Shown piece by piece: positions 22,033-61,077 of a DNA stretch of 64,000 bases. The translations under genes and the position numbers were made by a program. Source of the stretch: a virus; IMG/VR virus record IMGVR_UViG_3300031519_004559. The stretch is one strand, 5' to 3'. Numbering within the stretch: the first letter of the stretch is position 1; each line of letters begins with the position of its first letter. The notes under the pieces are model-generated. The model was not told the origin of the DNA, searched no databases, and saw only the letters and a program-made list of their open reading frames with translations.

Positions 22033-23046
22033 GTGACAACGTATAAAGACCTCAGATATAACCCAACGTTTACTCCGTCAACTAAACTAGCACACGCTAA
22101 AGAAATTAAACTATGGCAAGATAGAATAACGGAGTTAGAGGACAACTGTAGTGAAACTGTGTTTGCTATCAATCTTTCATTATGCGATAAATCAACCAAA
22201 CGTAAAATTCAAGATAAAATGTCCAATGACACAATTCAACTAGTAATATCTCATCACGAAGAACAAATTAAAAAATTATTAAACAAAAATTCTAATATTG
22301 GAGATAGAGATCTATGTAATAAAGGATTGCATCTATACAAAGTTGACGGAGTAAAAATTCCATTAAACCCTGATTGGAAAAATATTGTTGTAATGTTAAG
22401 TGGTGGTGCTGATAGTGCATGTTTAACTTACACTCTGTGTAAACTTATAAAAAAACATAAGCTAAAGATCAGAGTACATGTTATGTCTGGTATTAGAGTT
22501 TGGAAAAATAGACCTTGGGCGTCTGATGTAAGTCAAAATGTTTATAACTATCTTAAGACTGCCTGGCCAAAAATAATAGGAGCCCGTCATTCATATTTTA
22601 TCCCGCAATATTTTGAACATGGCAATTTAGGAAATGCGTTCGATGGGCAATCGGGCGAAGCTATAATATTAACTCAATACATAGAATATCTATGCATTAC
22701 AGAAAAGTATGACGCAGTGTTTGACGCTACTACTGAAAATCCTCCTAACTATTCTGACAAAAGAATGGAAGCAAGAGATCCTGGATCATCACAAATATTA
22801 TTATCCGCACAAGAAACGTATTGGAAATTGGGTCCGCTGCAAACAACTAAAAAAGATTGGGTAATAAAACAATACAAAGATAATAACATACTTGATTTAT
22901 TAAAACTTACAAGAAGCTGCGAAGGCGAATTTGTAGGATTAGATCATACAACATATATACCAAGACAGCATGTTCCAGAATGTGGAGATTGTTTTTGGTG
23001 TAAAGAAAGAAGCTGGGCTTTGAAGGAGAATAACATTGAGCTTTGA
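22033..23046 (+). CDS. QueC-like PP-loop ATPase
   Basis: MLSGGADS PP-loop; TRSC..CGDCFWC zinc motif as in QueC; about 100 aa of extra N-terminus. Confidence 0.7.
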   Translation: MTTYKDLRYNPTFTPSTKLAHAKEIKLWQDRITELEDNCSETVFAINLSLCDKSTKRKIQDKMSNDTIQLVISHHEEQIKKLLNKNSNIGDRDLCNKGLHLYKVDGVKIPLNPDWKNIVVMLSGGADSACLTYTLCKLIKKHKLKIRVHVMSGIRVWKNRPWASDVSQNVYNYLKTAWPKIIGARHSYFIPQYFEHGNLGNAFDGQSGEAIILTQYIEYLCITEKYDAVFDATTENPPNYSDKRMEARDPGSSQILLSAQETYWKLGPLQTTKKDWVIKQYKDNNILDLLKLTRSCEGEFVGLDHTTYIPRQHVPECGDCFWCKERSWALKENNIEL

Positions 23047-46518: not shown

Positions 46519-47610
46519 TTACCACCCCATTTGCTCCCAAGGTACATCTTTGTCACCAAAGTGTCCGTAAATACAATTCTCGCTATAGTTAGTATAGTTG
46601 AAAAGATCAAATCTGTCAATGATTCCTTTTGGTGTTAAATCAATTTCACGCTCAATAAAGTTAGCTATCGAACGATTGTGTCCGTTCGAATCAATATAAA
46701 TGCTTGTTGGTTCTTTAATACCAATAGCATAACTTAGTTGTATATTACACCAGTCTGCCATTTCATCTGCTACTACGTTCTTAGCTAACCAACGGGCCAT
46801 ATAAGCTGCACTACGATCTACTTTAGTAGGATCTTTGCCACTAAAAGCACCGCCCCCGTGAGGAGCAAACCCCCCATAAGTATCGACAATAATCTTTCTC
46901 CCAGTAACTCCGGAGTCACCATCAGGACCACCAATAACAAAATTGCCAGTAGGATTAAGATGCCATACAGTATCGCTATCAATTAAGTCTCCTAACTCTT
47001 CTATTGCCGCAAGTTTACATAAATGCCTTGCTTCTTCTACATTGCCTTCAGTGTGCTGTGTACTAATAACAATTTGATCAATGCGTTTAATAACACCGTC
47101 TCGTCTTGCACCATTGTACTCTACACTTACTTGTGATTTAGCATCCGGACCTAGTATACTACCACGCTTTGTCTTTAAGTTTTTAAGGATAGCGTGACTG
47201 TAATGAATAGGCGCTGGCATCATGCTAGGTGTATGATTACACGCATAACCAAACATAATACCTTGATCGCCTGCTCCAAAGCTATCTGTGCCTAGTGCAA
47301 TGTCTGCACTTTGTTCGTGAATTTCATTATACAACCGTAATTCGTCCCAATGAAATCCATCTTGCTCGTAGCCAATTTCTTTAACTTTGTTTCGAACAAT
47401 TTGTTCTACTTCGGCTCTAGTTACATTAAAGTTCTTAACTTCGCCTGCTAGTGTAACCATGTTGGTAGTTACTAGTGTTTCAACTGCTACTCGTGTAGTT
47501 GTATCGCCTGCGGCTAATCCGGCATCTACAATCGCATCACTAATTTGATCTGCTACTTTATCTGGATGCCCGTCACTAACACTTTCACTTGTAAAAATAT
47601 GTTTTTGCAT
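46519..47610 (-). CDS. metK: S-adenosylmethionine synthetase
   Basis: FTSESVSDGHPDK, GAGDQG, GGGAFSGKDPTKVDRS. Confidence 0.97.
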   Translation of the reverse strand: MQKHIFTSESVSDGHPDKVADQISDAIVDAGLAAGDTTTRVAVETLVTTNMVTLAGEVKNFNVTRAEVEQIVRNKVKEIGYEQDGFHWDELRLYNEIHEQSADIALGTDSFGAGDQGIMFGYACNHTPSMMPAPIHYSHAILKNLKTKRGSILGPDAKSQVSVEYNGARRDGVIKRIDQIVISTQHTEGNVEEARHLCKLAAIEELGDLIDSDTVWHLNPTGNFVIGGPDGDSGVTGRKIIVDTYGGFAPHGGGAFSGKDPTKVDRSAAYMARWLAKNVVADEMADWCNIQLSYAIGIKEPTSIYIDSNGHNRSIANFIEREIDLTPKGIIDRFDLFNYTNYSENCIYGHFGDKDVPWEQMGW

Positions 47611-48023: not shown

Positions 48024-48136
48024 ATTAATCCTTTTCTTCTTAGTTTATCGTCTAAATTTTCTTTGTCAATTGGAGCAGTCATTGCTGTCTTGTGTACGTC
48101 ATTAATGTACTTAGGTTCCCTAGGTACCCCAGGCAT
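48020..48136 (-). CDS. Possible 38-aa hypothetical protein (MPGVPREPK...)
   Basis: Fills the gap between queE and the next gene; its TGA overlaps the next ATG. Confidence 0.4.
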   Translation of the reverse strand: MPGVPREPKYINDVHKTAMTAPIDKENLDDKLRRKGLI

Positions 48137-49016
48137 TTCCGAATAAGCTGATGTGTAGTCTAGGGGTGAAGCGCCATCCCTTTTCCATGCAAACTTCCGC
48201 AACTTCTTTAACGTTAAGGACATACTCTTCCGAGCGTCCCCCAAGCGGCATACAATATACTGGACACTCAACGCCGACATCACGATATGCTTGCACAGCT
48301 CGCCCAGCTTCATCAATGTCTGCACGATCAGCAACGACAAATTTAAGATAAAGATCACTGCCATCAACAGTGGAATAGTTAAGAGCGACATCAGGCTTAA
48401 TAGCGTCCATCCAAGATTCTCCGCTAACGGATAGCTTAGGCGAACAACTCCACGTGACAGTAATTCTGTCACTATTGTTGAGATAGTTGTAGAGGTCATC
48501 ATGTAATACTTGTGTAGTGTTTGTTTCAAATGTAACATTTTTTAAATCCTTCATACGTGGATGTTCGAACAGTTCTACGTAAAGTCGTTGCCACGCTAAC
48601 AACGGCTCACCACCTGTCATAATTAAATGGATATCTTGTCCGTTATCCATTGTCCACTTGCCTTCTGGAGTAAGAGATAGCAAATGCTCAACTACTTCTT
48701 CAACTTCTGCAAGTTTGTTAAAGTCTTTAAACTCAGGATAGATACTTGCATAAGTGTCACATCCTGTATGGATAATAGGCAAATCTGTAAACTTTTCAGT
48801 CTTTGCAATAATGCCATCATCTAACAAATCTTTTACTTCTTGATTGTAGCGTTGCCCGCCTGCAAGTTTTTCTGCACGACTAGGTTCATCTTTACCGAGT
48901 CCAAAGTTCATACAACGGAAGTTACAACCGAAGGTACGCAAGAATACACTAGGTACTCCTACAAACTTACCTTCGCCTTGTACGCTGTAGAACGCTTCAC
49001 TGTACCGCAACTTCAT
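48120..49016 (-). CDS. queE: 7-carboxy-7-deazaguanine synthase (radical SAM) with atypical Cys spacing
   Basis: EAFYSVQGEG..G.PSVFLRTFGCNFRC, GCDT, TGGEP, ETN, SPK, RLH; adjacent to folE. Confidence 0.92.
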   Translation of the reverse strand: MKLRYSEAFYSVQGEGKFVGVPSVFLRTFGCNFRCMNFGLGKDEPSRAEKLAGGQRYNQEVKDLLDDGIIAKTEKFTDLPIIHTGCDTYASIYPEFKDFNKLAEVEEVVEHLLSLTPEGKWTMDNGQDIHLIMTGGEPLLAWQRLYVELFEHPRMKDLKNVTFETNTTQVLHDDLYNYLNNSDRITVTWSCSPKLSVSGESWMDAIKPDVALNYSTVDGSDLYLKFVVADRADIDEAGRAVQAYRDVGVECPVYCMPLGGRSEEYVLNVKEVAEVCMEKGWRFTPRLHISLFGNAWGT

Positions 49017-49696
49017 CGTGCAAACTCCTGTTGCAATTTAATGTTGTCAAAGAACTCCTTCTTAGTACCCGGATCATATTTAAAACTACCTTGTAATACA
49101 GTTGTTTGTGTAAGACTGCTAGTTGCCATAATGCCACGGTTCTCACAACAGCCGTGTGTTGCTTGAATATAAACACCTAAGTTTTCTGCACCAGTTGCTT
49201 TACCAATCTCACGTGCAATGTCATTTGCAAGTTCTTCTTGTAGAGTGCCACGTCGAGCGCACCATTGTGCAATACGTGTGTACTTACTAAGTCCGATAAG
49301 TTTGTCTGCAGCAATAATACCAATATATGCAGTGCCTGTAACAGGCTGGTGATGATGTGAACACATGCTTTTAAGTTCACTACGTACAACCAACATTCCG
49401 TCATATCGTTCATCACTGTCATTAGGAAATGCTGTTGCACTTGGCATTGGGTCATACCGACCTGACATAATCTCATTAAAGTACATCTTAGCAAGCCGTC
49501 TTGCTGTACCTTCTGAGTTAGGATCGTTGCGTCGATCAATAATTAGTGTATCTAGTACAGTGTTAAAAGCTAGAGTAGCTTCATCAATAAGATCTTGTTT
49601 ATCTCCATCTTCTAACACTGCACTAATATTGTCGCCGGCCCAAAAGCGTATATTGTTTACTTCTAGACGTTGTTTAACTACTTCTGATTTATTCAT
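49013..49696 (-). CDS. folE: GTP cyclohydrolase I
   Basis: SMCSHH, GLSK..R..LQE, HGC..RG. Confidence 0.95.
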   Translation of the reverse strand: MNKSEVVKQRLEVNNIRFWAGDNISAVLEDGDKQDLIDEATLAFNTVLDTLIIDRRNDPNSEGTARRLAKMYFNEIMSGRYDPMPSATAFPNDSDERYDGMLVVRSELKSMCSHHHQPVTGTAYIGIIAADKLIGLSKYTRIAQWCARRGTLQEELANDIAREIGKATGAENLGVYIQATHGCCENRGIMATSSLTQTTVLQGSFKYDPGTKKEFFDNIKLQQEFAR

Positions 49697-49742
49697 TCAC
49701 TTCTCCGATGTTTAGGCAGGGGATTGCCTGTAATATACTATA

Positions 49743-49771
49743 AGTATACACGTTTATTTAGGTTTTGTCAA
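49743..49771 (-). promoter_or_regulatory. sigma70 promoter TTGACA-17-TATACT (CTAAATA inside the spacer)
   Basis: Read on the minus strand, upstream of folE. Confidence 0.85.
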
Positions 49772-49778
49772 CCGTTAA

Positions 49779-49973
49779 CTAAAATAATTTTAGCATTTCT
49801 AAACGGTCATTTGCTTCTGCCATTTTATCAAGTTCTGTTTGAATAGCCTCCATCACATCACTGTGTTCACCAATACCGGCTGGGTTAGTTAAGTACACTT
49901 CGACATTTGCTTTGTGCAATGCAATAGCGCCTTCGGCATGTTTCTGTGCCGCTTCAATCATCATGTTACGCAT
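49779..49973 (-). CDS. Small hypothetical protein
   Basis: 64 aa from ATG 49973 (AAGGA RBS); NPAGIGEHSD motif. Confidence 0.7.
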   Translation of the reverse strand: MRNMMIEAAQKHAEGAIALHKANVEVYLTNPAGIGEHSDVMEAIQTELDKMAEANDRLEMLKLF

Positions 49974-50346
49974 GATAGTTTCCTTTCTCTGGGATAACGT
50001 GACGTACCCCGCCACGGGGGTCTTCTGTATCACCGTCTCTTCTAAAGATAAGGTGTACGTGGGGATACATGCAAGTCTGACCTGCACTCTCTCCCATATT
50101 AAGGCCAATGTTATAGCCTGTAATATCATTGTTTGCTGCTACTTTATTTTGATCGCCCATAGCAACAGCAAATTTAAAACATTTCATTAGCTCTTCTTGT
50201 GTCACTTGTTTAGGTACTATAAGAGTATGTCCTTGTGTAACCGGATATGCATCTTCGTACACTACAAAGTCTCTAGTATCGTATGTTACATTGGTCCACG
50301 GCGCTCGCCCGTCCGCTTGTGCCTTAGCTAGAGTATCAATACTCAC
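49966..50346 (-). CDS. HIT family nucleotide hydrolase
   Basis: DAYPVTQGHTLIVPK; GYNIGLN.G..AGQT; YPHVHLI..DPRGGVR. Confidence 0.9.
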   Translation of the reverse strand: MSIDTLAKAQADGRAPWTNVTYDTRDFVVYEDAYPVTQGHTLIVPKQVTQEELMKCFKFAVAMGDQNKVAANNDITGYNIGLNMGESAGQTCMYPHVHLIFRRDGDTEDPRGGVRHVIPEKGNYHA

Positions 50347-50878
50347 CTACATTCTCCCATGGGTAAACTAACCAAACATCTTCTTCAGCTTTGTTGATTT
50401 CGTGACAAGTATAACTAACAGGAACTTCGGCATTACTTGCACCATTATCTGTTAGTGTCGCAAAGCGAACATTGTTGCCCCATACTGCATTCCATCGATC
50501 ATGCTCCATTGGCATACAGCCCGATGGCCAGTCTTCTTTGATCCAATTGAAAGTAGCACCAGTATCGTTGATATCATCTACAATAAGGATGTTCTTACTC
50601 AATGGAGGGAAGCCTTCCTCTCCTTTAGGTTCGTAACCAAATGCATCTTCTGCCATCCATAAGTTGCTTTCGCTTTCACTGTCATCGTCTCGTAGACTAA
50701 CTTTAAGTGCTTCGCAACGTATGCCAGTCATATTACTAATAATAGTAGCAGGTACATTACCACCGCGTGTAAGTCCTACAATGTAATCAGGACGCCAGTT
50801 GTCTGTATACATTTGATTAACAATGCTTACACACATACGTTCAATGTCAGTCCAGCTGTAATAATGTTTCTTAATCAT
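50336..50878 (-). CDS. Type I phosphoribosyltransferase (xanthine-guanine PRT-like)
   Basis: LTRGG, PRPP loop ILIVDDINDTGAT, C-terminal WLVYPWE. Confidence 0.9.
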   Translation of the reverse strand: MIKKHYYSWTDIERMCVSIVNQMYTDNWRPDYIVGLTRGGNVPATIISNMTGIRCEALKVSLRDDDSESESNLWMAEDAFGYEPKGEEGFPPLSKNILIVDDINDTGATFNWIKEDWPSGCMPMEHDRWNAVWGNNVRFATLTDNGASNAEVPVSYTCHEINKAEEDVWLVYPWENVGEY

Positions 50879-50887
50879 AGTTAGTCC

Positions 50888-51040
50888 TTAGTTAATTATA
50901 TCAGGGGTTATTAAATCTACAGTGTTTACGACTGTCTTGCCTGCATATATTGCAGTTGTTGCAGTTACGTCTACAATCGCTGCTGTTGTGGAACAGCCTG
51001 TTAGAAGGAACAGTATAAGAAAAGCGTTTACTTTAATCAT
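50888..51040 (-). CDS. Small lipoprotein (50 aa, absent from the ORF track)
   Basis: Manual translation MIKVNAFLILFLLTGCSTTAAIVDVTATTAIYAGKTVVNTVDLITPDIIN; lipobox LTGC; ATGA overlap with the upstream stop. Confidence 0.75.
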   Translation of the reverse strand: MIKVNAFLILFLLTGCSTTAAIVDVTATTAIYAGKTVVNTVDLITPDIIN

Positions 51041-51225
51041 TTTCCCGCCTTTGAGTCTTTCTCTGCTTTAGTTAGTTTTTGATTCCAGCTACTATTGCTA
51101 ATACCAAGTTCGCTGGGCATAGGCTTTGTTTTGCCTTTAGTAATTTCTCCACCTTTGGCAAGAAACTCTGCCTTCATTCGTTCTAGTTCATCATCTTTAG
51201 GTTTTGCATCGTGATTCATTGGCAT
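51037..51225 (-). CDS. Small hypothetical protein
   Basis: 62 aa; EFLAKGGEITK; AAGGA RBS. Confidence 0.7.
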   Translation of the reverse strand: MPMNHDAKPKDDELERMKAEFLAKGGEITKGKTKPMPSELGISNSSWNQKLTKAEKDSKAGK

Positions 51226-51237
51226 GCGCAGTATTCC

Positions 51238-51459
51238 TTATTTGTATTTGTTAAATGCCGCAATTCTGTCTGCACGAGTATATCCTCGATCAAGTGCATA
51301 AGGATCAATATTTAATTTAGCTGCTATGTCGGTTGCTTCTTTTAAAGAACGACACGTACTAACTAAAATGTCTCTAGCTAATAGTACCTTCCATCTTGGA
51401 TTTTGTTTAGTATCTGTTGTTTCTACTACTGTGTAGTCGGTGTGTATTCTTTTAGCCAT
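51238..51459 (-). CDS. Small hypothetical protein
   Basis: 73 aa; AAGGA RBS. Confidence 0.65.
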   Translation of the reverse strand: MAKRIHTDYTVVETTDTKQNPRWKVLLARDILVSTCRSLKEATDIAAKLNIDPYALDRGYTRADRIAAFNKYK

Positions 51460-51510
51460 TAAAACATTCCTTGTTTATTAAAACGAGACGCTATTGCCTT
51501 CGTAGTTGCC

Positions 51511-52566
51511 TTACTCATTAGATATTGCCTCATAAAGTGCGCTACCGCTAAAAAACTCTTTGTTAAGTTTAGTAACTTGCTTGTTAATATTTGGAAGTAG
51601 ATCATCATAGTTTTCCATATAGTTTACAATTTGTGCGACTATTTTGTCTTTATGATGCAAGTATGCGTCATAGTTCTCAGTCCACTCACTAGGGTATTTA
51701 AATATGTCTAACCCCATTTCACTGTAACTTAGACGATCAGGTACCATAGGAATAGCATCAACTAATGCGCCTTCATACCAGCTAATGCCAAGTGTTTCTT
51801 GTAGGTTAGCACTAAACACCATCTTAGCTTCGCCTAACAAGTTATGATATTCGTTTTTAGTAAGTTGGTAATCTTGACAAACAACAAACTCGTATTGCGG
51901 CAACCGCTCTGCAAGATCTCTAAAGATTTCAACTTGCTTTTCAGGTGCAACTCTATGTGGAAATAAGATCAAGTCTCGTTTTGTCATACCTTTATAACTA
52001 TCTAAACTGCTACGCAAGTACTCCATAGGCCAGCCAACTCTTATTGCTTTGTCCATATCAACATTATAATTATCCATCATTGTATCTGTAAATAAATCAA
52101 TATGGAATTCACTTGCAAAGAAGTTGTCATCATAGCATTCGTACATTGACATTTCAGCATGTCTAACCCACGGCTTGTCACCTATTAGTCTACCCAAGAA
52201 GTCTTGTGGATCGTAACTACCAGCATGCCACATGCCGCCAATACGAATGTCAACACCTAGTAACTCTGCCATATACTTTAATTGTATAACAGTAGGGTTC
52301 CAAGCATCTGTGTATAAAAAGTAGTCACCGTCCTTAACTTCTCCGTTAGCAAATATCCTGCTAATCTCTAACATTTGTTGGGATTTATAATTATTAGTTC
52401 CTGCAAAGTTAAGAAATGCCCCAGGCGTTGTAGCCTGAGGTACTTCTCCGCCACTAATTACAGTGACGTCTTCGTTTGTAGCTCGTTGCAGTTGTTTAGG
52501 AAGATACTCTTTCCATTGCTTAGTATAGCGTGAGTCAACTGCTTCAATGTCTACAATATAAATCAA
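51511..52566 (-). CDS. GT-B (GT4-like) glycosyltransferase
   Basis: FPHRVAPEK and QETLGISWYEG (Ex7E-type) motifs; probable TTG start at 52566 overlapping the upstream stop. Confidence 0.75.
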   Translation of the reverse strand: MIYIVDIEAVDSRYTKQWKEYLPKQLQRATNEDVTVISGGEVPQATTPGAFLNFAGTNNYKSQQMLEISRIFANGEVKDGDYFLYTDAWNPTVIQLKYMAELLGVDIRIGGMWHAGSYDPQDFLGRLIGDKPWVRHAEMSMYECYDDNFFASEFHIDLFTDTMMDNYNVDMDKAIRVGWPMEYLRSSLDSYKGMTKRDLILFPHRVAPEKQVEIFRDLAERLPQYEFVVCQDYQLTKNEYHNLLGEAKMVFSANLQETLGISWYEGALVDAIPMVPDRLSYSEMGLDIFKYPSEWTENYDAYLHHKDKIVAQIVNYMENYDDLLPNINKQVTKLNKEFFSGSALYEAISNE

Positions 52567-52757
52567 TTTCCGTTCCTTGCCCGACGTTGTTGCCGACCTT
52601 GGTATTTTTGCCAAGAAAGATAACTTTCCCAGATTCGATCGCCTTTCTTATAAAGACTCTTTTCGTCATACGGTTTAGCTTCGAACCTACAGTAGTCTTT
52701 AAACTTATCTAGGTCATCAAATACTTTATTGTATGCTTCCCGATTGAAGTTAGCCAT
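52563..52757 (-). CDS. Small hypothetical protein
   Basis: 64 aa from ATG 52757; VFDDLDKFKDYCRF. Confidence 0.7.
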   Translation of the reverse strand: MANFNREAYNKVFDDLDKFKDYCRFEAKPYDEKSLYKKGDRIWESYLSWQKYQGRQQRRARNGN

Positions 52758-52777
52758 TTTATGTTCCTTTAATAGCA

Positions 52778-53227
52778 TTAGTTTTTAGGATAAAAAATTG
52801 AACAGCCGTTTTCGCCATCTTCGGCGACATCAATTTCTACAAACCGGCTTGGGTATTTTGTAGAAATTTCTTGGTACAAATCATCTGCGATCATCTCACA
52901 TGACTTGTGATTCAGTTGTATTACATCTTGTGCATACAACCGTTCCATCCAGCGTTTAAACTGAATAAACTCAATATCGCGATCGTTGTGAAACACTTCG
53001 ATGCGAACTTTAAAGTGGAAAATATGACGATGCGGAATGCCTAGGAATGATACATCATCCCATTCGCCTGTTGCTAGTTTAGGATCAGTGTCTGCGCCTG
53101 GGTACATATGTACACCTTCTTTACGAAAGGTAACCCATACACTTCTGCTTGCTTGTTGTGTTGTCATTTTATCGTCTTCTTCTCTTGTTCTACGTAGCAT
53201 ATAATCATAATAAGCTTCATTTGTCAT
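52778..53227 (-). CDS. dpdL: QueD-like T-fold protein, DpdL-like (putative CDG decarboxylase)
   Basis: LGIPHRHIF matches LxxxHRHxF rather than the QueD CxxxHGH motif; SCEMIA and EDGENG T-fold tail. Confidence 0.7.
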   Translation of the reverse strand: MTNEAYYDYMLRRTREEDDKMTTQQASRSVWVTFRKEGVHMYPGADTDPKLATGEWDDVSFLGIPHRHIFHFKVRIEVFHNDRDIEFIQFKRWMERLYAQDVIQLNHKSCEMIADDLYQEISTKYPSRFVEIDVAEDGENGCSIFYPKN

Positions 53228-53233
53228 AGTACT

Positions 53234-53262
53234 AGTATACTTTCATTTGATTACTTTGTCAA
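53234..53262 (-). promoter_or_regulatory. sigma70 promoter TTGACA-17-TATACT; possible leaderless transcript
   Basis: The -10 box ends 6 nt before ATG 53227; the -35 lies in the 3' end of the upstream CDS. Confidence 0.8.
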
Positions 53263-53764
53263 GGCCATAATTGTTCCAATCCGTAAATTTATTACGGTCC
53301 ATCAACTCATGCAGGCTATGGCACCAAACACCTGGATTAGTTGCTTTAAAATCTTTATCGTCAATTTTAATCATTGTGTTGTAGTTCCACTGTTTAACAT
53401 AAGGAACCACAACACGAAGTTGCGGAATAAAGTTATCTACCTCAGTTAGACCGCCGTCTAAGAACCATTCAAGGTTAATAGTACTTGGAATGTCTAAACT
53501 GCATAAGATACCTTGATCTGTAAACGCACGGATCATTAGATCCCAGTCTTCAAACTCATCTGAAGTAACTGGCTTATAACTGTGATTAGCACCAAAGAAG
53601 ATATGTTCGCACTGTTCTTCTTTGTAGAACTTCATTATCTCGTTGTAGTCCTGTGTGCCAGTAACAAACAATGTCTTCATTCCAAACGCAGGAGTCTTTT
53701 CAACTTCTACACCTGTAAAGAAGATGATGTCGTTTGCTTCGCCTGTGTCGTAATCACGTTTCAT
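53243..53764 (-). CDS. Hypothetical protein within the deazaguanine module
   Basis: 173 aa; FTGVEVEKTPA.GMKTLFV..HIFFGANHS..NPGVWC. Confidence 0.75.
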   Translation of the reverse strand: MKRDYDTGEANDIIFFTGVEVEKTPAFGMKTLFVTGTQDYNEIMKFYKEEQCEHIFFGANHSYKPVTSDEFEDWDLMIRAFTDQGILCSLDIPSTINLEWFLDGGLTEVDNFIPQLRVVVPYVKQWNYNTMIKIDDKDFKATNPGVWCHSLHELMDRNKFTDWNNYGLDKVIK

Positions 53765-53921
53765 TTTTTAATTGATCCTTAATTGCCAGTTTTTCTTTTT
53801 TTAATTGCTGTACTTCCATTTCATTAGCACGTTCTTTTTCAGACTTTTCTATTACACCGTGTAAATGTTCGTGCATCTTTTTAAGTCTTTCTAAGTTTTT
53901 CTTTTTAGGACGCAAAGCCAT
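53754..53921 (-). CDS. DUF465/YdcH-like small coiled-coil protein
   Basis: H..L..I..E..LKKEKLAIKDQL; start ATG 53921 (GGAG RBS). Confidence 0.65.
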   Translation of the reverse strand: MALRPKKKNLERLKKMHEHLHGVIEKSEKERANEMEVQQLKKEKLAIKDQLKNET

Positions 53922-53922
53922 T

Positions 53923-55482
53923 TTATATCTCCTCGAATAAATTGCCAAAGGTGGTACTAGCATTCACAGTCTTCTTACCAATAGCACCACGTGTTCCTGG
54001 AATGGCCATCCAAAACTTTGAATAACTATCAATAACCTTCATAGACTCTTCTCGAGTTGTCTTTGAAAAAATCTCTTCAACAACATCTCTAAATAGAATA
54101 CGATCAAACTTTTCGTCTACAAGCATCTTAGGTATAACGCCTGCATCGTACTGTCTATTAGCTTCTTGTACAGCATTAATGTGTGTCCATACGTTATGGC
54201 CCATCTGAATAGCATAACTAAAGCTATCCCAGCTCGTTGAGTCCCTGCCACGTACAGTTGTGTTACCATCTGCATCTAGCAAAGGATTACCTTCTTTGTC
54301 TAAGTCAACATCGCCTTTGAGTACTTTAATAGTACCAATTTTATTAGTATCACCGACTGAATACGTGCAAATATCGTTAACTAATAATCCGTCAGTTAAT
54401 GGACTATCTTCAAATGTATTAAAGATACCGTCTTGTAGTGTAGCGTCTTTAAATCCTCGAGTGTCAGTTGCATACTTTAGTTCGTCCACACTAGGCACCA
54501 TTCGATAGGTCCATTTACCTCTATCAGGTGTTTCAACTGATGTATATACTTGTCCATTAGCAGTTGCTAAAAATGGACTAGCACAGTCAAATGTAAGCAT
54601 CATAGTAGGGTTATAGTACTTACGTACAGCTCGTTGTACGTCTGTAAGTAACGTAGCCCATTCTAGCTTAGATGTGCCTAAGAAGTGCATTACATCGTGT
54701 ATACCGCTTTGTAGTAGTCCATCATAGTGCAATGAAACTATACGTTTAAGAACCAAATGCACATCGCACATATTCTGACCACCCATTGACCACCCATTAA
54801 AGTGATTGTCTGGATATTTGACTGGATCGCAATAGTCTTTCATTTGCTCATACCAGTCATCGGCGTCTGCATGATTCTCACCTTGCAATACGTTAAGGAA
54901 CTTACAAGCACCTGTTCTATGCTTCATCCAATAGTCATTGTTAATACGTGTTGCTTTCACAGCTTCTTGATATGTACTAATACCAGTTGCCTTTGCACCT
55001 GCTGGTGAACGTGCAACCCAAGCTGGAATATCAAGTATCATACCATAGTCCATGTAAGCATCCATCCAACGCAAAACACTATCACGTTTTTGCTGTGCTT
55101 TAGGACAATTAGGATCTTTCCAATCGCCTTCCCAAACACCTTTACCAATTTGAAAACCACCACTATCGCCTAGTGCCCAAGTATTATCACGATCTCTATT
55201 ACGGATCATATCTTCCTTAGGGCTAAACTTAGTAGTGTCTAATTCAGCATGTCCTGCAGAGTAAAGCGTCCACTTGTATGTAAATGCTCCTTCTTTGGAG
55301 TTAAGATAGTTAAGACTTTCCATGCCATTTGCAAAGTTTTTAGGCATACGATCATCAGAAACATACGGACCAGTTACAGGATCAGGATAACGTTGCTTGC
55401 CCACATAAGTTGCATAGAAGCCACTAAGTGCAGGTAAGAAATGTGCGTAATCTTGTTGCGCTTCTGTAAGGTCTTTATTCAT
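53923..55482 (-). CDS. dpdA: DpdA/TGT-family guanine transglycosylase-like protein
   Basis: DSGGFQ, LDIP, NVLQG, MHFLG, TFDCASP correspond to TGT catalytic motifs; clustered with folE, queE and dpdL. Confidence 0.75.
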   Translation of the reverse strand: MNKDLTEAQQDYAHFLPALSGFYATYVGKQRYPDPVTGPYVSDDRMPKNFANGMESLNYLNSKEGAFTYKWTLYSAGHAELDTTKFSPKEDMIRNRDRDNTWALGDSGGFQIGKGVWEGDWKDPNCPKAQQKRDSVLRWMDAYMDYGMILDIPAWVARSPAGAKATGISTYQEAVKATRINNDYWMKHRTGACKFLNVLQGENHADADDWYEQMKDYCDPVKYPDNHFNGWSMGGQNMCDVHLVLKRIVSLHYDGLLQSGIHDVMHFLGTSKLEWATLLTDVQRAVRKYYNPTMMLTFDCASPFLATANGQVYTSVETPDRGKWTYRMVPSVDELKYATDTRGFKDATLQDGIFNTFEDSPLTDGLLVNDICTYSVGDTNKIGTIKVLKGDVDLDKEGNPLLDADGNTTVRGRDSTSWDSFSYAIQMGHNVWTHINAVQEANRQYDAGVIPKMLVDEKFDRILFRDVVEEIFSKTTREESMKVIDSYSKFWMAIPGTRGAIGKKTVNASTTFGNLFEEI

Positions 55483-56216
55483 TACTTACTCTGCGCTGGA
55501 AGAATATAATTGTATGTAGCTAAACCACTGTTAACTGTAATTTGCATAGCACCTTGATCACTAATGCTCATTGTAATATCACCACCAAGACTTAAAATTG
55601 ACTGTGTTTGTGCTACAGGCCAAGCCCAAGTATGCGACAACGAACCTTCTATATTAGACTGGAATACAAACTCGCCTGCGTGTGTGCTTTGATCACCGAA
55701 GCTAAACACAAGATCAGTTGCATCGCCTGTTTTTACAGTTTTTACGTTAAACGTAGGTTCTTCGGAATGTGCTGCACTTTGCAGTTTCATTCTTGTAATA
55801 CTAGCAACATGCGGATTAAATGTTACGTCCCAGCTTGCACCTTTAAATTTAACACTTTTAAGTTTTTCATCAATAATTTGCTGATTCATAAAACGGTAAT
55901 CGTTTTGGAAATCGCCTGCTGCATTTTCAAAGTGAATATGCGTAGGAATAGTTTCGCCATTGCGTTCTGCTTGCACAACATCGATCTTAGCATCTTTCTG
56001 ATACTCTGGATTCTTCAAGTGCAATGCTAACTTATCTAAGTTAGGCATACCAAATGTACCAGATGCAACATTAGAAGTTGTTTCTGCTGTAAGTATCACT
56101 GACCGATCCTCGGCCATTGATTCAAATGTAGTAGTTTCGCCACCCGTTACTTTAACTAAGCTGAGGAATCCCAGCGAGTGTGTTTTTGCGACTACGTCTT
56201 GTAAGATGTCTTTCAT
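55482..56216 (-). CDS. DNA polymerase sliding clamp (gp45/PCNA-like)
   Basis: 244 aa, two-domain clamp-like pattern (SMAEDRSVIL..FGMPNL..L; ISDQGAMQITV..YILPA) in replication context. Confidence 0.7.
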   Translation of the reverse strand: MKDILQDVVAKTHSLGFLSLVKVTGGETTTFESMAEDRSVILTAETTSNVASGTFGMPNLDKLALHLKNPEYQKDAKIDVVQAERNGETIPTHIHFENAAGDFQNDYRFMNQQIIDEKLKSVKFKGASWDVTFNPHVASITRMKLQSAAHSEEPTFNVKTVKTGDATDLVFSFGDQSTHAGEFVFQSNIEGSLSHTWAWPVAQTQSILSLGGDITMSISDQGAMQITVNSGLATYNYILPAQSK

Positions 56217-56217
56217 G

Positions 56218-56970
56218 TTATTCTCCTATGTTAAGTTTTATTATATTATCTTTATGACCGTTTGTCAAGTACTTTTCTATATTATATTTAGGTTTAAAGC
56301 CCAAAGTCTTAATTTTTTCCATGTTCGCACAAGTCCATTGTCGTTCATGTGGTGTATTTAGGCGGATAGGCAAGTTGTCTGCAAAATCACGGATCTTATA
56401 TGGAGTACCCGTGCCTATATCAATAGTGCCTGTATACGTGCTTTTCATACAAAGCTCAATAGCATCGCATAAATCTTCAATGTGTATAAAGTCTCTATAG
56501 TGATCTGTTACATATTCTAGTCCACCATTAAATAGTTTGTCAAAGAACATGCCTTTGCGTGGAGTGTCTGAATAAACGGTATGAAACCGCATGCCTAGTG
56601 TATCAGCATAACGTTCAGCAGCTTCTTCGACTATGTACTTAGACGCCGCATAAGGGTTCAAATCGGGCTCGTAAGCACTGGAACTGCTTGCGTATAGTAT
56701 ACGTGTATCTCTGTAGCGTTCAAACAGACGCTTGCTTGCTTCAACATTGTTACGCCAATAGCCTGCAGGATCGTTTGTACTTTCTCGAACTCCACTTTTG
56801 CCTGCTAGATGTATAATTAAATCAAACTCTTCTGAAAACTCTACATCACATAAGTCAAGTCCGTCTTGTAGGTCAATACCAACTACTACTCTGTCTTTTG
56901 TTTCTAATAGTCTGTTTAGTAAATGTGTACCAATAAATCCTTTATGGCCTGTTAATAATATTCTATGCAT
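56218..56970 (-). CDS. NAD-dependent epimerase/dehydratase
   Basis: TGHKGFIG, HLAG, ASSS, YAASK (YxxxK). Confidence 0.9.
   Translation of the reverse strand: MHRILLTGHKGFIGTHLLNRLLETKDRVVVGIDLQDGLDLCDVEFSEEFDLIIHLAGKSGVRESTNDPAGYWRNNVEASKRLFERYRDTRILYASSSSAYEPDLNPYAASKYIVEEAAERYADTLGMRFHTVYSDTPRKGMFFDKLFNGGLEYVTDHYRDFIHIEDLCDAIELCMKSTYTGTIDIGTGTPYKIRDFADNLPIRLNTPHERQWTCANMEKIKTLGFKPKYNIEKYLTNGHKDNIIKLNIGE
56240..56268 (-). promoter_or_regulatory. sigma70 promoter TTGACA-17-TATAAT inside the epimerase 3' end
   Basis: Perfect consensus upstream of the clamp gene. Confidence 0.85.
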
Positions 56971-57367
56971 TAACTCGATTCCTTAAATCACTTGAACTGA
57001 AACGGTGGTCTCTTTTGTTAAAGTGTAATTCGATGTCACGCTTGCGGCAAATGTCTTTACCTGTGAAATCTTTGTCGCGATACTCTTCTCCTAGTATGCG
57101 TACTTCTATTGGATACATACTAAGGATATCTTCTAAGTCTTCTTCAGTTCCGTACGGAATAATTTCATCTACATACTCTACACCTTTTAGTTGAGTATAG
57201 CGTTCAACTACTGTTTGTATGGGTGCGTTCTTGTCTTTGCGATCAACACTAGGGTCTACCTGTAATCCGCAAATTAAATAATCGCATTGTTCTTTTGCTT
57301 CACGCAACATAATTACGTGTCCAGCATGTAATAAATCAAACGTGCTACAAGTAAATCCTACTTTCAA
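56963..57367 (-). CDS. Cytidylyltransferase (TagD-like)
   Basis: FDLLHAGH (HxGH), ERY.QL..VDEIIPY, SSSDLR. Confidence 0.9.
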   Translation of the reverse strand: MKVGFTCSTFDLLHAGHVIMLREAKEQCDYLICGLQVDPSVDRKDKNAPIQTVVERYTQLKGVEYVDEIIPYGTEEDLEDILSMYPIEVRILGEEYRDKDFTGKDICRKRDIELHFNKRDHRFSSSDLRNRVNA

Positions 57368-57693
57368 TGTTCTCTCCTTCCATCAAATACACAAATAAAC
57401 TTTAAACCAACGTCTGTGTTGTTGTGTACTCTGTGAAATACGTTGTCGTGGATTAGTACAGTGTCGCCTGCTGTAACATCAAATATTTTATGATCAAGCT
57501 CCATCTGTCCACTACCGCCTACAAAGACATAGACTTCTTCTTGCCCGGCATGCCGGTGACCTGTTGTACTTTTACCTGCATTTAAATGCGTACTACTCAC
57601 TACAAGGTTGCTTAGATCAGTATTGTCTTTAACAACATAACGTGCATCTTCTTTAACAACCTTGCCGCCAATATCCCAATCACTGTATTTCAA
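57364..57693 (-). CDS. Cupin domain protein (mannose-6-phosphate isomerase-like)
   Basis: GHRH..QEEVY..G.G..GD.VLI..FHRV.N; probable TTG start at 57693. Confidence 0.8.
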   Translation of the reverse strand: MKYSDWDIGGKVVKEDARYVVKDNTDLSNLVVSSTHLNAGKSTTGHRHAGQEEVYVFVGGSGQMELDHKIFDVTAGDTVLIHDNVFHRVHNNTDVGLKFICVFDGRREH

Positions 57694-58406
57694 TTTGCTA
57701 TCCCCCTTTGTTGGAAATTTTCTAAAATTTCTTTTGTGTCTCTCCAACTTTTAACTTGTTTTGCAACACCGCCTGCTTCTTTTACAGCATATGCAAGACT
57801 AAAATCGTTGCCGTCTGGGTCCATTCTATCGCCAAAGAAGAATACTCTATCTTTTTGTATTTCCTGCAGCACTTGACGCTTGTCTTTACCTTTAGCAATA
57901 ATGTCAATACCGGTTTCGCCACCAACCACTGCACTTACATTAGGAAAATGTTTGTTGATCCTTTCAGCAATGTGTATGCGTTCGTCGGCTTCTATGTCAT
58001 AGTAAAAGTAATCTTTGCGTTGTACTTTATCTGCATTACGCCCCACAACACTAAAGTTAACCATGCCCGGCCGTTCTTCTAAATGCTTGCCGGTTTTAAT
58101 TGTGTATTCACTATTTTTAAGTTCAGCATTAAGAAATTCTTTAAGTTCGTCGGTCATCTTCCAAGGATTAGTGTAAACATTCTCTTGTCGATACCATACA
58201 TCGTTGCCGTTGCAATTATAAATCTTGTTTACACTCATACAAATTTCAGGACCAATCTGTTCAAGCGTTTTAGGGTTATCACTTCCTGTAACTAAACTTA
58301 CTGTATTGTTTTGCGAAAAATATAAAAACCACAATGCAAATTGAGGATTTATTTTCTTCCTACTAGGGGTAAGTGTGCCGTCAACATCAAATATAAAATG
58401 ATTCAT
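57690..58406 (-). CDS. Phosphomannomutase, eukaryote-type HAD-IIB
   Basis: FDVDGTLT, VTGSD, ERPGMVNFS..GR, GG..IDI..GKDK, FFGD..GND. Confidence 0.85.
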   Translation of the reverse strand: MNHFIFDVDGTLTPSRKKINPQFALWFLYFSQNNTVSLVTGSDNPKTLEQIGPEICMSVNKIYNCNGNDVWYRQENVYTNPWKMTDELKEFLNAELKNSEYTIKTGKHLEERPGMVNFSVVGRNADKVQRKDYFYYDIEADERIHIAERINKHFPNVSAVVGGETGIDIIAKGKDKRQVLQEIQKDRVFFFGDRMDPDGNDFSLAYAVKEAGGVAKQVKSWRDTKEILENFQQRGIAN

Positions 58407-58407
58407 T

Positions 58408-61077
58408 TTACTCTCCAAAGTCAAACAAACTTGAAAACGTATTATGCCTCTTAGTATCTTCTAGTGGATAGTTAAGAACTCCAATCAAGTTGTCTAGTTT
58501 GTTATCAATAATAGTTTCTGCCATAGCTATATCATCAAATGGCAACTCTTTAAACCAATCAGGAATACGTAACTCGTCTGTTGGATACGCAACACTTGTA
58601 TACCCTAGTGGATTTTGTTTTAGTTTACAAACAATGACCTTCATGCCGTCTACAACTTCTTGCGAGTACTTGTCACCATTCATACGTTTGAGTGTATTCC
58701 AATTAATACTTGCTCTAACGTGTCCAGGCATGTTTGCTTTGCCTTGCTTTTCTTCAAGTCGTTGATAGTGTCCGACTTTGTTTGCACGTTTCGGACTACC
58801 TTTCTCCCAACCAGGCCTCTCACTAAACTCCTTACGGAATACAGTAATACGTTCTAGTACATCTTCTTGCGGCTTGTCAGTAAGCACCATAAGCAATAGC
58901 TCACTTAGGAACTCTTGCATAAACACGGGAGTATCTGATCTACGCAAGTCCAAGCCCATTGCTTTTACTTTACCTGCTTTGCCGTCTACATCTGTTCTAA
59001 AGCCTTCAATGTCATACACTAGTGCTGCATAACGCTTCTTAGTAATAAACAACCCTGACTGTGCTACAATTTCTCTAGCCGCTGCAATAACGTCTGATCT
59101 ACTCTTTGGACAATGAAATGCTTCCATCATAAACTTTGGAAAAGTTTCATTAGCCGCTTCGCATACTTGATCATATAGTGTAATTACGTTGTCCTTATCC
59201 CAAGGAATAGAACCATTGTCAATTTGCTCTTTGAGAATAGGATAACCACTAAAGTAACATGAGTCAGTATCACCATAGATCATTGCATCACCTGTGTGAT
59301 CATAAACACCTGTAATAGTCTTGTTAACTTCTGCACTCATATGCTTAACAATAGTACGTCCTGTTAGTGTTGTACTTTGTCCGATACGTTTGTCAAAGAA
59401 TCTACAACCTGGATTAAGAATTGCACCATACAAACTGTTAAGCAAAATCTTCTTAACTAGCTGTCGCTTATCCCAATACTCAATCTCTGCTGAGTTGCCG
59501 GCGTCCTTAGCTTTCTTTAGCTTCTTCTGCATCTCTTTACGTTCAGCATACCAACGTTTTAAAATACCTGGAATAACACCTTCAAACTCTGTAGTAAAAA
59601 TAGTACCGTTACTACTAAGCATCCAGGGTTGATGACTATCAAACACTGCTTTATAAATTTCAGCACCGCTTAGAACGTCACTGCCCCCGCTCTCCCAGTC
59701 AATGGTTAGCGCAACATCTTTACGCTGTTCCATAACTGCTTCATATTCTTCTGTACTAAAGCGTCCTTCCCAACTACCAGCAAAACTCTTCTTCTTTAAG
59801 AACATGTCTTCGTGTACACGAGCATCACTAATGTCTGGACGTATTTGTCCAATAACAGTTTCTGGCGCCATGTTTAATGCACGAATAACTGACGGATATA
59901 GTGAGTTCAAATCCATTGAACCAATCCATTTGTGCAAGCCCTTCTTAGGAAATGCTACATATGCACCAGCCGCTTGTGTATTTTCGTCATCACGTCTTTG
60001 TCGATTAGGAACTTGTAAGCCTCTATGGTGAGCTTCGTTAACAATGCCTTGTTCTGTAACAGCAACAGCGCCCATTGTAGTTTGAATAAGAACTGTGTTC
60101 TCGTGTGCAATAGTGTTAGACAAGTCAATAAAGCGTAGTTTCTTATCTAGTTTATCAAGTAGTGCTGTATCTTGAATGTTATATTGAATAAATTTACGGA
60201 AGTCGTTGTTGTATAATTGATCAAGTGTGCCTTCGTATTCAACTTTGTTTTCACCTACCTCAATCTCGCCAATAGCATCTAGTCGATATGTGTGACGCTC
60301 TTCGTAGGTGTACTTGCGATACAAATTCAAACTATCTAAGTGTACACGCCCAACTAAGTCAAACGTTTGGCTTTCTTTGCCGTACTTCTCGTACATACGC
60401 TTCTTAGGAAGTTGGCCCCACAAGCAGAATCTACGTGTGTCGTCTTTGCTTAGTACACGACTAGTCCTGTTTACAGTATATGGAATATCATATCCTTCAC
60501 TGTTCCATCCACTAAGTACATCACTGTCTTCAATAAGTGTTAAGAAAGTATCAATCATTTCACTTTCTTTTTCAACTAGCATTACATTGTCTATGCCTTC
60601 AACTTCTTTACGTGCTTGCTCCATAGTAAGTGTCTTTGGAGGTACAGCAATACATATCATAGTGTCGAGCCACTGTAAGTATACACTAATACTTGTAATA
60701 GGCATAAACGGATCACTAGGATCAGCAAAGCCACGTTCTGGATCAAAGTCGGTCTCAATATCAAAAAATGCAACGTTTAGTTTAGGTGCATCTGCGTTAA
60801 GATAGTTATCACTCAAACATTGAAAAATAGGATTAATGTCACTTTCAAACAGTTCTTTGTCTCTGTTAATAGCAACTTCTTTGCGGAAGTCTTTTGTACT
60901 CTTACATACAATACGACTTAGGGGATCACCGTATACACTTTTGTACTTGCCCCTAGGGTCTTTATAAAAAAATGTATATTTAGATTGATATTCACGGTAA
61001 ATTCTTTTACCATCTTTGCGTTCAACAGCTCGAATGATATCGGCGTCGCGATCAAAGAATGCGTCTACGTAGCTCAT
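58408..61077 (-). CDS. Family B DNA polymerase (gp43-like)
   Basis: FDIET, GWNSEGYDIPY, YNIQD exonuclease motifs; DLNSLYPS, KILLNSLYG, YGDTDS. Start set to ATG 61077 (GAAGGAG RBS). Confidence 0.97.
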   Translation of the reverse strand: MSYVDAFFDRDADIIRAVERKDGKRIYREYQSKYTFFYKDPRGKYKSVYGDPLSRIVCKSTKDFRKEVAINRDKELFESDINPIFQCLSDNYLNADAPKLNVAFFDIETDFDPERGFADPSDPFMPITSISVYLQWLDTMICIAVPPKTLTMEQARKEVEGIDNVMLVEKESEMIDTFLTLIEDSDVLSGWNSEGYDIPYTVNRTSRVLSKDDTRRFCLWGQLPKKRMYEKYGKESQTFDLVGRVHLDSLNLYRKYTYEERHTYRLDAIGEIEVGENKVEYEGTLDQLYNNDFRKFIQYNIQDTALLDKLDKKLRFIDLSNTIAHENTVLIQTTMGAVAVTEQGIVNEAHHRGLQVPNRQRRDDENTQAAGAYVAFPKKGLHKWIGSMDLNSLYPSVIRALNMAPETVIGQIRPDISDARVHEDMFLKKKSFAGSWEGRFSTEEYEAVMEQRKDVALTIDWESGGSDVLSGAEIYKAVFDSHQPWMLSSNGTIFTTEFEGVIPGILKRWYAERKEMQKKLKKAKDAGNSAEIEYWDKRQLVKKILLNSLYGAILNPGCRFFDKRIGQSTTLTGRTIVKHMSAEVNKTITGVYDHTGDAMIYGDTDSCYFSGYPILKEQIDNGSIPWDKDNVITLYDQVCEAANETFPKFMMEAFHCPKSRSDVIAAAREIVAQSGLFITKKRYAALVYDIEGFRTDVDGKAGKVKAMGLDLRRSDTPVFMQEFLSELLLMVLTDKPQEDVLERITVFRKEFSERPGWEKGSPKRANKVGHYQRLEEKQGKANMPGHVRASINWNTLKRMNGDKYSQEVVDGMKVIVCKLKQNPLGYTSVAYPTDELRIPDWFKELPFDDIAMAETIIDNKLDNLIGVLNYPLEDTKRHNTFSSLFDFGE

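Follow-up and report, generated by a model that had tools for sequence, protein, structure and literature searches.

The alpha- and beta-glucosyltransferases of phage T4 glucosylate 5-hydroxymethylcytosine already in DNA, and the mannosyl- and galactosyl-queuosine of animal tRNA are made by QTMAN/GTDC1 and QTGAL. The latter are, to our knowledge, the only sugar-bearing 7-deazaguanines in nucleic acid; of 7-deazaguanine bases in phage DNA we know of eight, none of them sugar-bearing. Here we analyse a gene module of an uncultured giant marine phage, the IMG/VR virus record IMGVR_UViG_3300031519_004559 (a stretch of 64,000 nucleotides, hereafter the window), in which a glycosyltransferase (GT) gene is paired with dpdL, a gene linked to deazaguanine synthesis, downstream of a sliding-clamp-like gene. 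Our preferred reading, held tentatively and at a little short of an even chance, is a replisome-linked system that swaps DNA guanine for a 7-deazaguanine-type base, most likely a sugar-decorated one. The initial annotation of this DNA stated that no glycosylated deazaguanine was known from phage DNA; our literature search agreed, as it returned no report of a glycosylated deazaguanine in DNA, nor any description of the DpdA branch, the GT-dpdL pair or the 173-aa protein family discussed below.

Cellulophaga phage phiST is the sole DpdL phage whose DNA has been analysed, and it carries plain 7-deazaguanine (dDG, [M+H]+ 267.1) at full replacement (PMC10516641). Its pathway shares with the window module the enzymes that make 7-carboxy-7-deazaguanine (CDG), the DpdL motif, a divergent transglycosylase of the tRNA-guanine transglycosylase (TGT) family and a position near replication genes; QueC is absent from phiST. 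Unlike in the window, homologues of the GT, of the 173-aa protein and of the phosphoribosyltransferase (PRTase) are all missing from phiST, and its DpdA3 of 259 aa is distantly alignable to the DpdA-like protein of the window, which has 519 aa and a clamp-type tail. The modules of Acidovorax phage ACP17 (gp119-gp126) and Pseudomonas phage PA5oct (gp162-gp168) share DpdL, the GT (37-44% identity), a 173-aa homologue, QueE and a DpdA-family enzyme with the window. PA5oct additionally shares the DpdA type and the PRTase (gp163), whereas the DpdA of ACP17 belongs to a different subfamily, the KVP40/VH7D type; PA5oct differs in having no sugar cassette and in keeping its 173-aa homologue, gp121, 27 kb away from the module.

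Further parallels are more distant. The T4 glucosyltransferases are likewise phage GT-B enzymes encoded with base-modification genes and offer a model for post-replicative sugar transfer, but they show no apparent sequence similarity to the window GT, whose acceptor would be a purine analogue without a known hydroxymethyl. Mannosyl- and galactosyl-queuosine bear their sugar on a cyclopentenediol side chain, and the nucleic acid is tRNA; the window module has no such side-chain pathway, and its target would be DNA. HuiG, a GT4-type enzyme of huimycin biosynthesis, N-glycosylates a free 7-deazapurine on its 2-amino group (PMC7439116). As in the window, the GT4-type enzyme of the huimycin and dapiramicin pathways is clustered with FolE, QueD and QueE homologues (PMC7439116; bioRxiv 10.64898/2026.04.15.718813); in contrast, HuiG serves an actinomycete metabolite built on preQ0 (QueC is present), with O6-methylation and no entry into nucleic acid, and we liken the two enzymes by description only. 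Tubercidin clusters, whose CDG pathway is QueC-less, finally resemble the window module in including a PF00156 PRTase, TubE, which acts on CDG; they differ in that they also rely on a UbiD decarboxylase, on a GMP reductase and on either a Nudix or a HAD enzyme, to which the window module has no counterpart.

What is new here, as judged by sequence comparison, is the co-conservation of the GT and dpdL in seven lineages. Our set of relatives comprises 80 IMG/VR loci with a DpdA identity of 74-100%, out of at least 599 contigs; each count given below has as its denominator only the contigs long enough to tell, and these contigs are kin, so that the counts are not independent. The GT does co-occur with dpdA and dpdL, a check that the initial annotation had proposed: DpdL is present in 55 of 55 marine relatives and the GT in 47 of 47, and six further cultured lineages carry it too, while it is missing from phiST. 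In all seven lineages, namely the marine clade, PA5oct, Phosso, ACP17, X1/BUDD, BCSR5 and BUCT-ZZ01, GT homologues lie beside dpdL or within ~3 kb of it. The independent lineages, placed by means of a curated phage collection, carry more weight than the counts among kin. The GT adjoins dpdL in the PA5oct group (gp167-gp166) and in ACP17 (gp124-gp125), and in Phosso the two genes are adjacent although dpdA lies ~170 kb away. X1 has the order GT-dpdA-dpdL, BUDD keeps GT and dpdL ~1.5 kb apart, the GT of BCSR5 is ~3 kb from dpdL, and the cyanophage BUCT-ZZ01 has the order GT-dpdA-dpdL-GT. The DpdA of these modules is of one type in the window phage, PA5oct and Phosso and of another in ACP17, X1 and BUCT-ZZ01, and QueE and a DpdA-family gene accompany the dpdL-GT pair in every lineage examined. 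Genome-wide, no GT homologue was detected in the phiST group, MA9V-3, Ahp1, D479, RHph_I1_18 or Bakedbeans, all of them DpdL phages. Of these, the phiST group and MA9V-3 have the DpdA3 type, and the GT-less DpdL modules of Ahp1, D479 and RHph_I1_18 (our loci L093, L099 and L092) feature a conserved protein of ~290 aa.

The assignment of DpdL rests on a motif and on direct comparison. The T-fold protein of the window (149 aa, 52778..53227; like all module genes given here, on the minus strand) matches phrog_17812 (E 2e-32) and contains L-G-I-P-H-R-H-I-F, that is, the DpdL signature L-x3-H-R-H-x-F, which stands in place of the C-x3-H-G-H of QueD (Cui et al. 2023, NAR, PMC10516641). It is 50% identical to the DpdL of ACP17 (E 9e-34) and 32% identical to that of phiST (E 1e-8; both tblastn), the founding members of DpdL (PMC10516641), and in our alignment it groups with these two, apart from phage QueDs carrying C-x3-H-G-Y. 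On this sequence evidence the protein is a true DpdL relative, a QueD paralogue without the catalytic Cys. The initial annotation stated that this motif had been linked to decarboxylation, which matches the published account: DpdL has been proposed, not proven, to be a CDG decarboxylase giving 7-deazaguanine (PMC10516641).

The GT (351 aa, 51511..52566) lies in an open reading frame (ORF) that stays open to 52614 (367 aa). Its most probable start is 52566, where the preceding 71-aa gene has just ended, and all database relatives have 351-352 aa. It matched nothing in Pfam (including Glycos_transf_1 and Glyco_trans_1_4), PHROG or NCBIfam, and its homologue in BUCT-ZZ01, linked to it by hhalign at 96.3%, passes the Pfam cut-offs of both Glycos_transf_1 and Glyco_trans_1_4. 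The AlphaFold (AF2) model, with a predicted local distance difference test (pLDDT) score of 82, shows the two Rossmann domains of a GT-B fold. In Foldseek it matched BshA, GlgM, MshA and glycogen synthase with E down to 1.5e-7, and VIA gave Z 20-23.4 over 295-331 residues against sucrose-phosphate synthase, BshA, MshA and OtsA. The EX7E motif is invariant, with E257 and E265 (351-aa numbering) lying within a Q-E-T-L-G-I-S-W-Y-E-G stretch. Going by the fold of the model, the protein is a retaining GT-B glycosyltransferase of the GT4 type. It is 44-48% identical to PA5oct gp167 and to the Phosso glycosyltransferase, and a 370-aa neighbour of dpdA in Vibrio phage 2.275.O, considered as a further homologue, was ruled out by comparison. 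When bacterial genomes were scanned for the GT, four close relatives and no others came up, all on contigs that bear the label of metagenome-assembled genomes (MAGs) of unrelated phyla. These contigs (L102-L105, 66-74% identity) are assigned to Crocinitomicaceae, Neomarinimicrobiota (335 kb), Legionellales and a Methanobacteriota archaeon, and probably belong to jumbo phages, having been binned with cellular MAGs by mistake.

The third component is the predicted DNA-guanine transglycosylase (519 aa, 53923..55482), which found no match in Pfam, PHROG, NCBIfam or PDB sequences even at E 10. An HMMER scan of 1.84 billion representatives at E <=1e-3 gathered a DpdA-like family of 933 clusters at 50% identity. 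A low-diversity profile of 30 sequences of the 519-aa protein matched nothing, and only a diverse profile of 64 members linked the family to TGT; with hhalign it reached 96.6% against ACP17 DpdA (E 5.8e-10, 184 columns), 87.8% against E. coli Tgt (E 3.3e-6, 182 columns) and 87.5% against phiST DpdA3 (E 3.6e-6, 83 columns). An ESM lead pointed to TGT as well, and the Pfam TGT model PF01702 matched 0 of the 64 members. Nine residues are invariant among these diverse members, including D106-S107-G109, D151-x-P153, H266, G269 and D299, and all four TGT landmarks are kept: D-S-G-G corresponds to TDSGGFQ, D151-x-P to FDECTP, G269 to MGVG and D299 to the nucleophile in MFDCV. The E. coli motif IIQG is also among the Tgt motifs aligned with the family. 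The hhalign alignment ends before the zinc-site region of TGT (C-x-C-x2-C...H), and no Cys is invariant in the 64-member alignment. Taken as profile evidence, this places the protein in the TGT/DpdA superfamily, in a branch that has no Pfam model, and the DpdA of PA5oct (36% identity) is of the same type.

How, then, is this enzyme tied to replication? The module genes lie co-oriented and tightly packed downstream of the clamp-like gene in a minus-strand block at 46.5-61.1 kb of the window, at the places and in the orientation given by the initial annotation. The block begins with the polymerase gene PolB, a four-gene sugar cassette, the clamp-like gene and the genes for the 519-aa protein, DUF465, the 173-aa protein, the 149-aa T-fold protein, the 71-aa protein and the GT; three tiny ORFs, the PRTase, HIT, folE, queE, a 137-aa gene, metK and a 5'-3' exonuclease follow. 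From the clamp to the GT all junctions are overlaps or gaps of <=15 nt, and the sole large gap, of 269 nt, precedes folE. A TAATG is common to the stop of the clamp gene and the start of the 519-aa gene, so that the start of dpdA is translationally coupled to the clamp gene. The clamp-like protein itself (55482..56216, phrog_12062) has no Pfam match and no PDB sequence match; it is 31-35% identical to the 'sliding clamp' of Phosso and to PA5oct gp170, and its gene is kept in 72 of 72 marine relatives. Two proteins of the block end alike, a feature that the initial annotation did not mention: the DpdA-like protein in ...T-F-G-N-L-F-E-E-I (53923-53970) and PolB in ...T-F-S-S-L-F-D-F-G-E (58408-58450). 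Only these two of the 112 window ORFs (stop-to-stop, >=100 aa) have F-x-x-[LM]-F in their last 14 residues, both have acidic residues after it, and x-x-L-F-(D/E) near the C terminus recurs across the diverse DpdA-like family, PA5oct included. The polymerases of T4 and RB69 dock on gp45 via such a C-terminal peptide. The tail motif of the DpdA-like protein thus suggests clamp docking, and together the polymerase-like tail, the coupling to the clamp and the absence of tRNA genes from the 64-kb window favour DNA at the replication fork as its likely substrate.

Precursor synthesis is represented by two genes. GTP cyclohydrolase I, FolE (49013..49696; PF01227, E 1.6e-37; NCBIfam FolE, E 1.6e-39), is found in 29 of 31 marine relatives, and a QueE-like radical SAM (S-adenosylmethionine) CDG synthase (48120..49016; phrog_2076, E 2e-48), whose matches to the NCBIfam QueE models are below the cut-offs, in 28 of 28. 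In line with the initial annotation, which saw no canonical QueD or QueF, a search of the window in all frames turned up neither a relative of QueD, QueF or YhhQ nor a C-x3-H-G-[HY] motif. Beyond the window, a complete relative of 357 kb has one PTPS gene (QueD) ~55 kb upstream of the module. An ORF at 22033-23046 bears a very weak resemblance to QueC, of which only the PP-loop and a C-x2-C tail match; with no PDB match and a score below the Pfam cut-off, it was not used. As side observations, the QueDs at L086:1363-1890, L087:7613-8089, L088:5087-5716 and L094:2256-2723 have C-x3-H-G-Y and not the textbook C-x3-H-G-H, so that from their sequences the second zinc-binding His appears to be replaced, and in gp176 of Vibrio phage Bakedbeans (L098:6227-7378, 383 aa) the DpdL domain forms the C-terminal third, fused to an N-terminal domain.

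In the mechanism that we propose, FolE and QueE, with a QueD encoded outside the window, would by homology make CDG from GTP, and DpdL would decarboxylate it to 7-deazaguanine. The DpdA-like enzyme would ride the sliding clamp and exchange guanine for the deazaguanine after replication. The GT would move a sugar from a nucleoside diphosphate (NDP)-sugar to the deazaguanine, either as the free base, as HuiG does, or once inserted, as the T4 glucosyltransferases do on 5-hydroxymethylcytosine; the donor would possibly come from the upstream nucleotidyltransferase/epimerase cassette. The PRTase would turn the guanine expelled by DpdA into GMP and then GTP, the pathway's own precursor, and the 173-aa protein would work with DpdA or create the acceptor group. 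These steps are not equally secure. We regard it as quite probable that the DNA of the source phage contains a deazaguanine, and as somewhat less likely than not that the GT places a sugar on it; we propose the latter as the best reading of the dpdL-GT linkage. Slightly less likely again is the extension to the widespread ocean jumbo-phage clade together with PA5oct, Phosso, ACP17, X1, BCSR5 and BUCT-ZZ01, a group that would be united by a sugar-bearing 7-deazaguanine, a hitherto unrecognised, clamp-docking DpdA subfamily and a guanine-recycling PRTase.

The candidate donor cassette (56218..58424) comprises, by Pfam, a PMM-type HAD mutase, a cupin, an HldE-domain-II/TagD-like nucleotidyltransferase and a short SDR epimerase. 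Its best NCBIfam scores, both below the cut-off, are to rfaE_dom_II (E 2.5e-19) and heptose epimerase (E 1.6e-14); cassette proteins also score against UDP-glucose epimerases, again below the cut-off, and in the PDB the nucleotidyltransferase is nearest to ethanolamine-phosphate and glycerol-3-phosphate cytidylyltransferases. The nucleotidyltransferase and the SDR score highest against the ADP-heptose enzymes HldE domain II and HldD. Read from its gene content, the cassette could yield a donor resembling ADP-heptose or ADP-mannose without the need for a kinase, and it may supply the sugar of the GT. The nucleotidyltransferase is present in 63 of 67 marine relatives, the SDR in 59 of 69, the PMM in 47 of 64 and the cupin in 20 of 66.

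Several points weigh against a sugar-bearing base. 7-Deazaguanine has no obvious hydroxyl for O-glycosylation. The best structural matches of the GT use small molecules as acceptors, and among these tied rows none is a DNA glycosyltransferase; neither T4 alpha-glucosyltransferase (AGT) nor beta-glucosyltransferase (BGT) is among the 50 best structural rows, and no direct comparison with them was made. The GT is acidic (isoelectric point 4.9), and the sugar cassette is variable among relatives and absent from PA5oct. The DpdL of RHph_I1_18 is 50% identical and occurs in a phage in which no GT homologue was detected, so the GT is not needed for DpdL function. Nor are the remaining steps beyond doubt: the TGT membership of the DpdA-like protein is a matter of profile-profile scores of 88-97%, not of fold, the chemistry of the module is deduced from its genes throughout this phage group, and the phiST and ACP17 genes expressed in E. 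coli gave no dDG, for which, according to Cui et al., further enzymes are perhaps needed (PMC10516641).

Some of these points favour the main rival explanation, which we consider unlikely: that the DNA carries plain 7-deazaguanine, as in phiST, or CDG, and that the GT has a different acceptor, for instance a protein, some other modified base or a precursor of lipids or the cell envelope, and does no more than share an early or middle operon with dpdL. phiST makes dDG with FolE, QueD, QueE, DpdL and DpdA3 only, the DpdL of the GT-less RHph_I1_18 is as similar to that of the window as those of GT-bearing phages are, and a GT whose structural neighbours are small-molecule enzymes would find no hydroxyl handle on the base. 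However, a GT with an unrelated acceptor hardly explains why it adjoins dpdL in most of the seven lineages, despite differing gene orders and two DpdA types, so that a shared substrate is likely; nor does it explain why Phosso keeps the pair together with dpdA so far off. A further argument comes from PA5oct, whose DNA resists restriction at G-containing sites and contains a modified G, and in which the authors of that study found QueE and PTPS genes (PMC12191111). PA5oct is susceptible to END nucleases that are said to sense hypermodified bases, one of which hits only G-modified phages (PMC12191111), and this does not sit well with a plain dDG.

The PRTase (50336..50878; PF00156, E 1.4e-9) bears on a second alternative, which we judge improbable. 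The initial annotation suggested that this enzyme could route the base through the nucleotide pool; in such a scheme it would make a CDG or 7-deazaguanine ribonucleotide, much like TubE, which DpdL, the GT, the 173-aa protein and the HIT protein would tailor and a polymerase incorporate, leaving the TGT-like protein a proofreading or secondary role. The PRTase is indeed present in 35 of 35 members of the clade; the modules of PA5oct and BUCT-ZZ01 have one too, as does the neighbourhood of a distant DpdA-like gene, and tubercidin clusters do use a PF00156 PRTase on CDG. Moreover, Ahp1 and D479 have a deoxynucleoside monophosphate (dNMP) kinase next to dpdL, which hints at a nucleotide-level route in GT-less modules of their type, and phiST carries MazG and a kinase-like ATPase. 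Yet the closest PDB relatives of the window PRTase are the purine PRTase 1vdm (4.4e-7) and then HGPRT and XGPRT, and it scores below the cut-off against NCBIfam XPRT (E 5e-12); its nearest kin are thus ordinary guanine, xanthine and hypoxanthine enzymes (6-oxopurine PRTases), and guanine salvage, which needs no new specificity, fits them equally well. No kinase or reductase was seen in the window module, and the conserved DpdA-family enzyme, with its intact catalytic residues and polymerase-like tail, would be superfluous. Each exchange by DpdA would free one guanine, and GTP is the precursor of the pathway, which makes guanine salvage the most economical reading; perhaps, then, the PRTase recycles the guanine released.

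A third possibility, very improbable in our view, is that the product is no DNA base at all but a pterin glycoside, comparable to the tetrahydrobiopterin glucoside of cyanobacteria, to which the T-fold protein, FolE, the SDR and the GT4 enzyme would all contribute. That pathway is indeed composed of FolE, a T-fold protein like PTPS, an SDR and a GT; structural matches of the GT include the tetrahydrobiopterin glucosyltransferases 5zes and 9v0l, and BUCT-ZZ01 infects a host that owns BGluT. But BGluT comes only 28th and 41st among the matches, where dozens of other GT4 enzymes do as well, DpdL lacks the Cys needed for PTPS and QueD chemistry, and the constant company of QueE and a DpdA-family gene is left without a role. 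Just as improbable is that the TGT-like enzyme modifies host or phage tRNA and not DNA: it is a member of the tRNA-guanine transglycosylase superfamily, whose substrate cannot be read from sequence, but no tRNA gene lies in the window, the gene is coupled to that of the clamp, the protein ends in the tail motif of the polymerase, its closest relative of a characterised type is phage DpdA, and in PA5oct it is the DNA itself that is G-modified.

A sugar-bearing deazaguanine made by a replisome-linked module would matter in several ways. That seven lineages conserve the GT-dpdL pair points to a ninth base, perhaps to a whole class, and no glycosylated purine analogue would have been known from a genome before. 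Such a base would alter the range of defences, be they restriction, type IV or glycosylase systems, that these phages evade or set off, and sugar-bearing deazapurines would be of practical interest for artefacts in sequencing and for enzymatic tools. In the clamp-type tail there is also a hint of how post-replicative exchange could match the pace of replication and reach complete replacement. For PA5oct, a candidate for phage therapy, candidate genes behind the modified G can now be named and the question is testable, all the more readily as six cultured phages carry the module. As a DpdA-like family of 933 clusters has no Pfam model, deazaguanine-modified phages are also likely to be under-counted in metagenomes.

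Among the other genes of the module, the 173-aa gene (53243..53764) is carried by 61 of 61 marine relatives. It encodes an orphan alpha/beta protein (AF2, pLDDT 80.5) for which neither Foldseek against the PDB nor a wide VIA search (best Z 7.6) nor BFVD gave a convincing fold match; the sole BFVD match is its own ACP17 homologue, and the ESM Atlas offered only sub-threshold leads to glycoside-hydrolase barrels. The family is known from three lineages only, with 40% identity in the PA5oct group and with ACP17 gp122, which sits between folE and dpdA and abuts dpdA. A relationship to the DpdA family or to the Phosso 'glycosylase' was ruled out, and a 143-aa protein of X1 was not convincing. The initial annotation saw in this protein a candidate missing enzyme, which, given its orphan fold and narrow distribution, we treat as a conjecture; the acidic and His residues that do not vary in the family speak for an enzyme, and we regard it from sequence as a candidate tailoring enzyme or DpdA partner. 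The basic 71-aa protein between dpdL and the GT (52563..52778) keeps its position in marine relatives and has no family match in Pfam, PHROG or NCBIfam. Two further genes are accessory: a HinT-like HIT protein (49966..50346; PF01230, E 6e-9) in 26 of 33 marine relatives, and a SAM synthetase, MetK (46519..47610; three S-AdoMet synthetase domains), a predicted supplier of SAM for the radical SAM chemistry that is present in only 2 of 80 related loci.

Some minor observations concern the wider phage group. A DNA search of the phage collection returned nothing near-identical to the window. Net charge was dropped as a clue to DNA binding, as every protein of the source phage, the polymerase included, is acidic. 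PolB is intact in the window (898 aa) and annotated in PA5oct as two pieces with a homing-endonuclease gene between them (L001:2608-7834). A distant relative on Logan contigs (L095/L096) has, in this order, PolB, the clamp, a DpdA-like protein, QueE and the exonuclease, with no dpdL or GT nearby, and the DpdA-like family therefore appears to pair with several deazaguanine pathways; Vibrio phage 2.275.O has a member of the family together with a QueC/QueF pathway. The small DUF465 ORF (69 aa, 53754..53963; PF04325, E 2.2e-6) is a variable accessory gene that overlaps the 3' end of dpdA by 41 nt and occurs in only 5 of 80 relatives. Most relatives have no DUF465 gene, and their DpdA, which exceeds that of the window by ~20 residues, continues past the L-F motif in an acidic tail, ...L-D-E-x-K-L-E-E-L-E-D-E-Q-L; in the source phage and in L060, L077, L080 and L081 (tblastn), DpdA ends right after the L-F motif and the DUF465 ORF is present instead.

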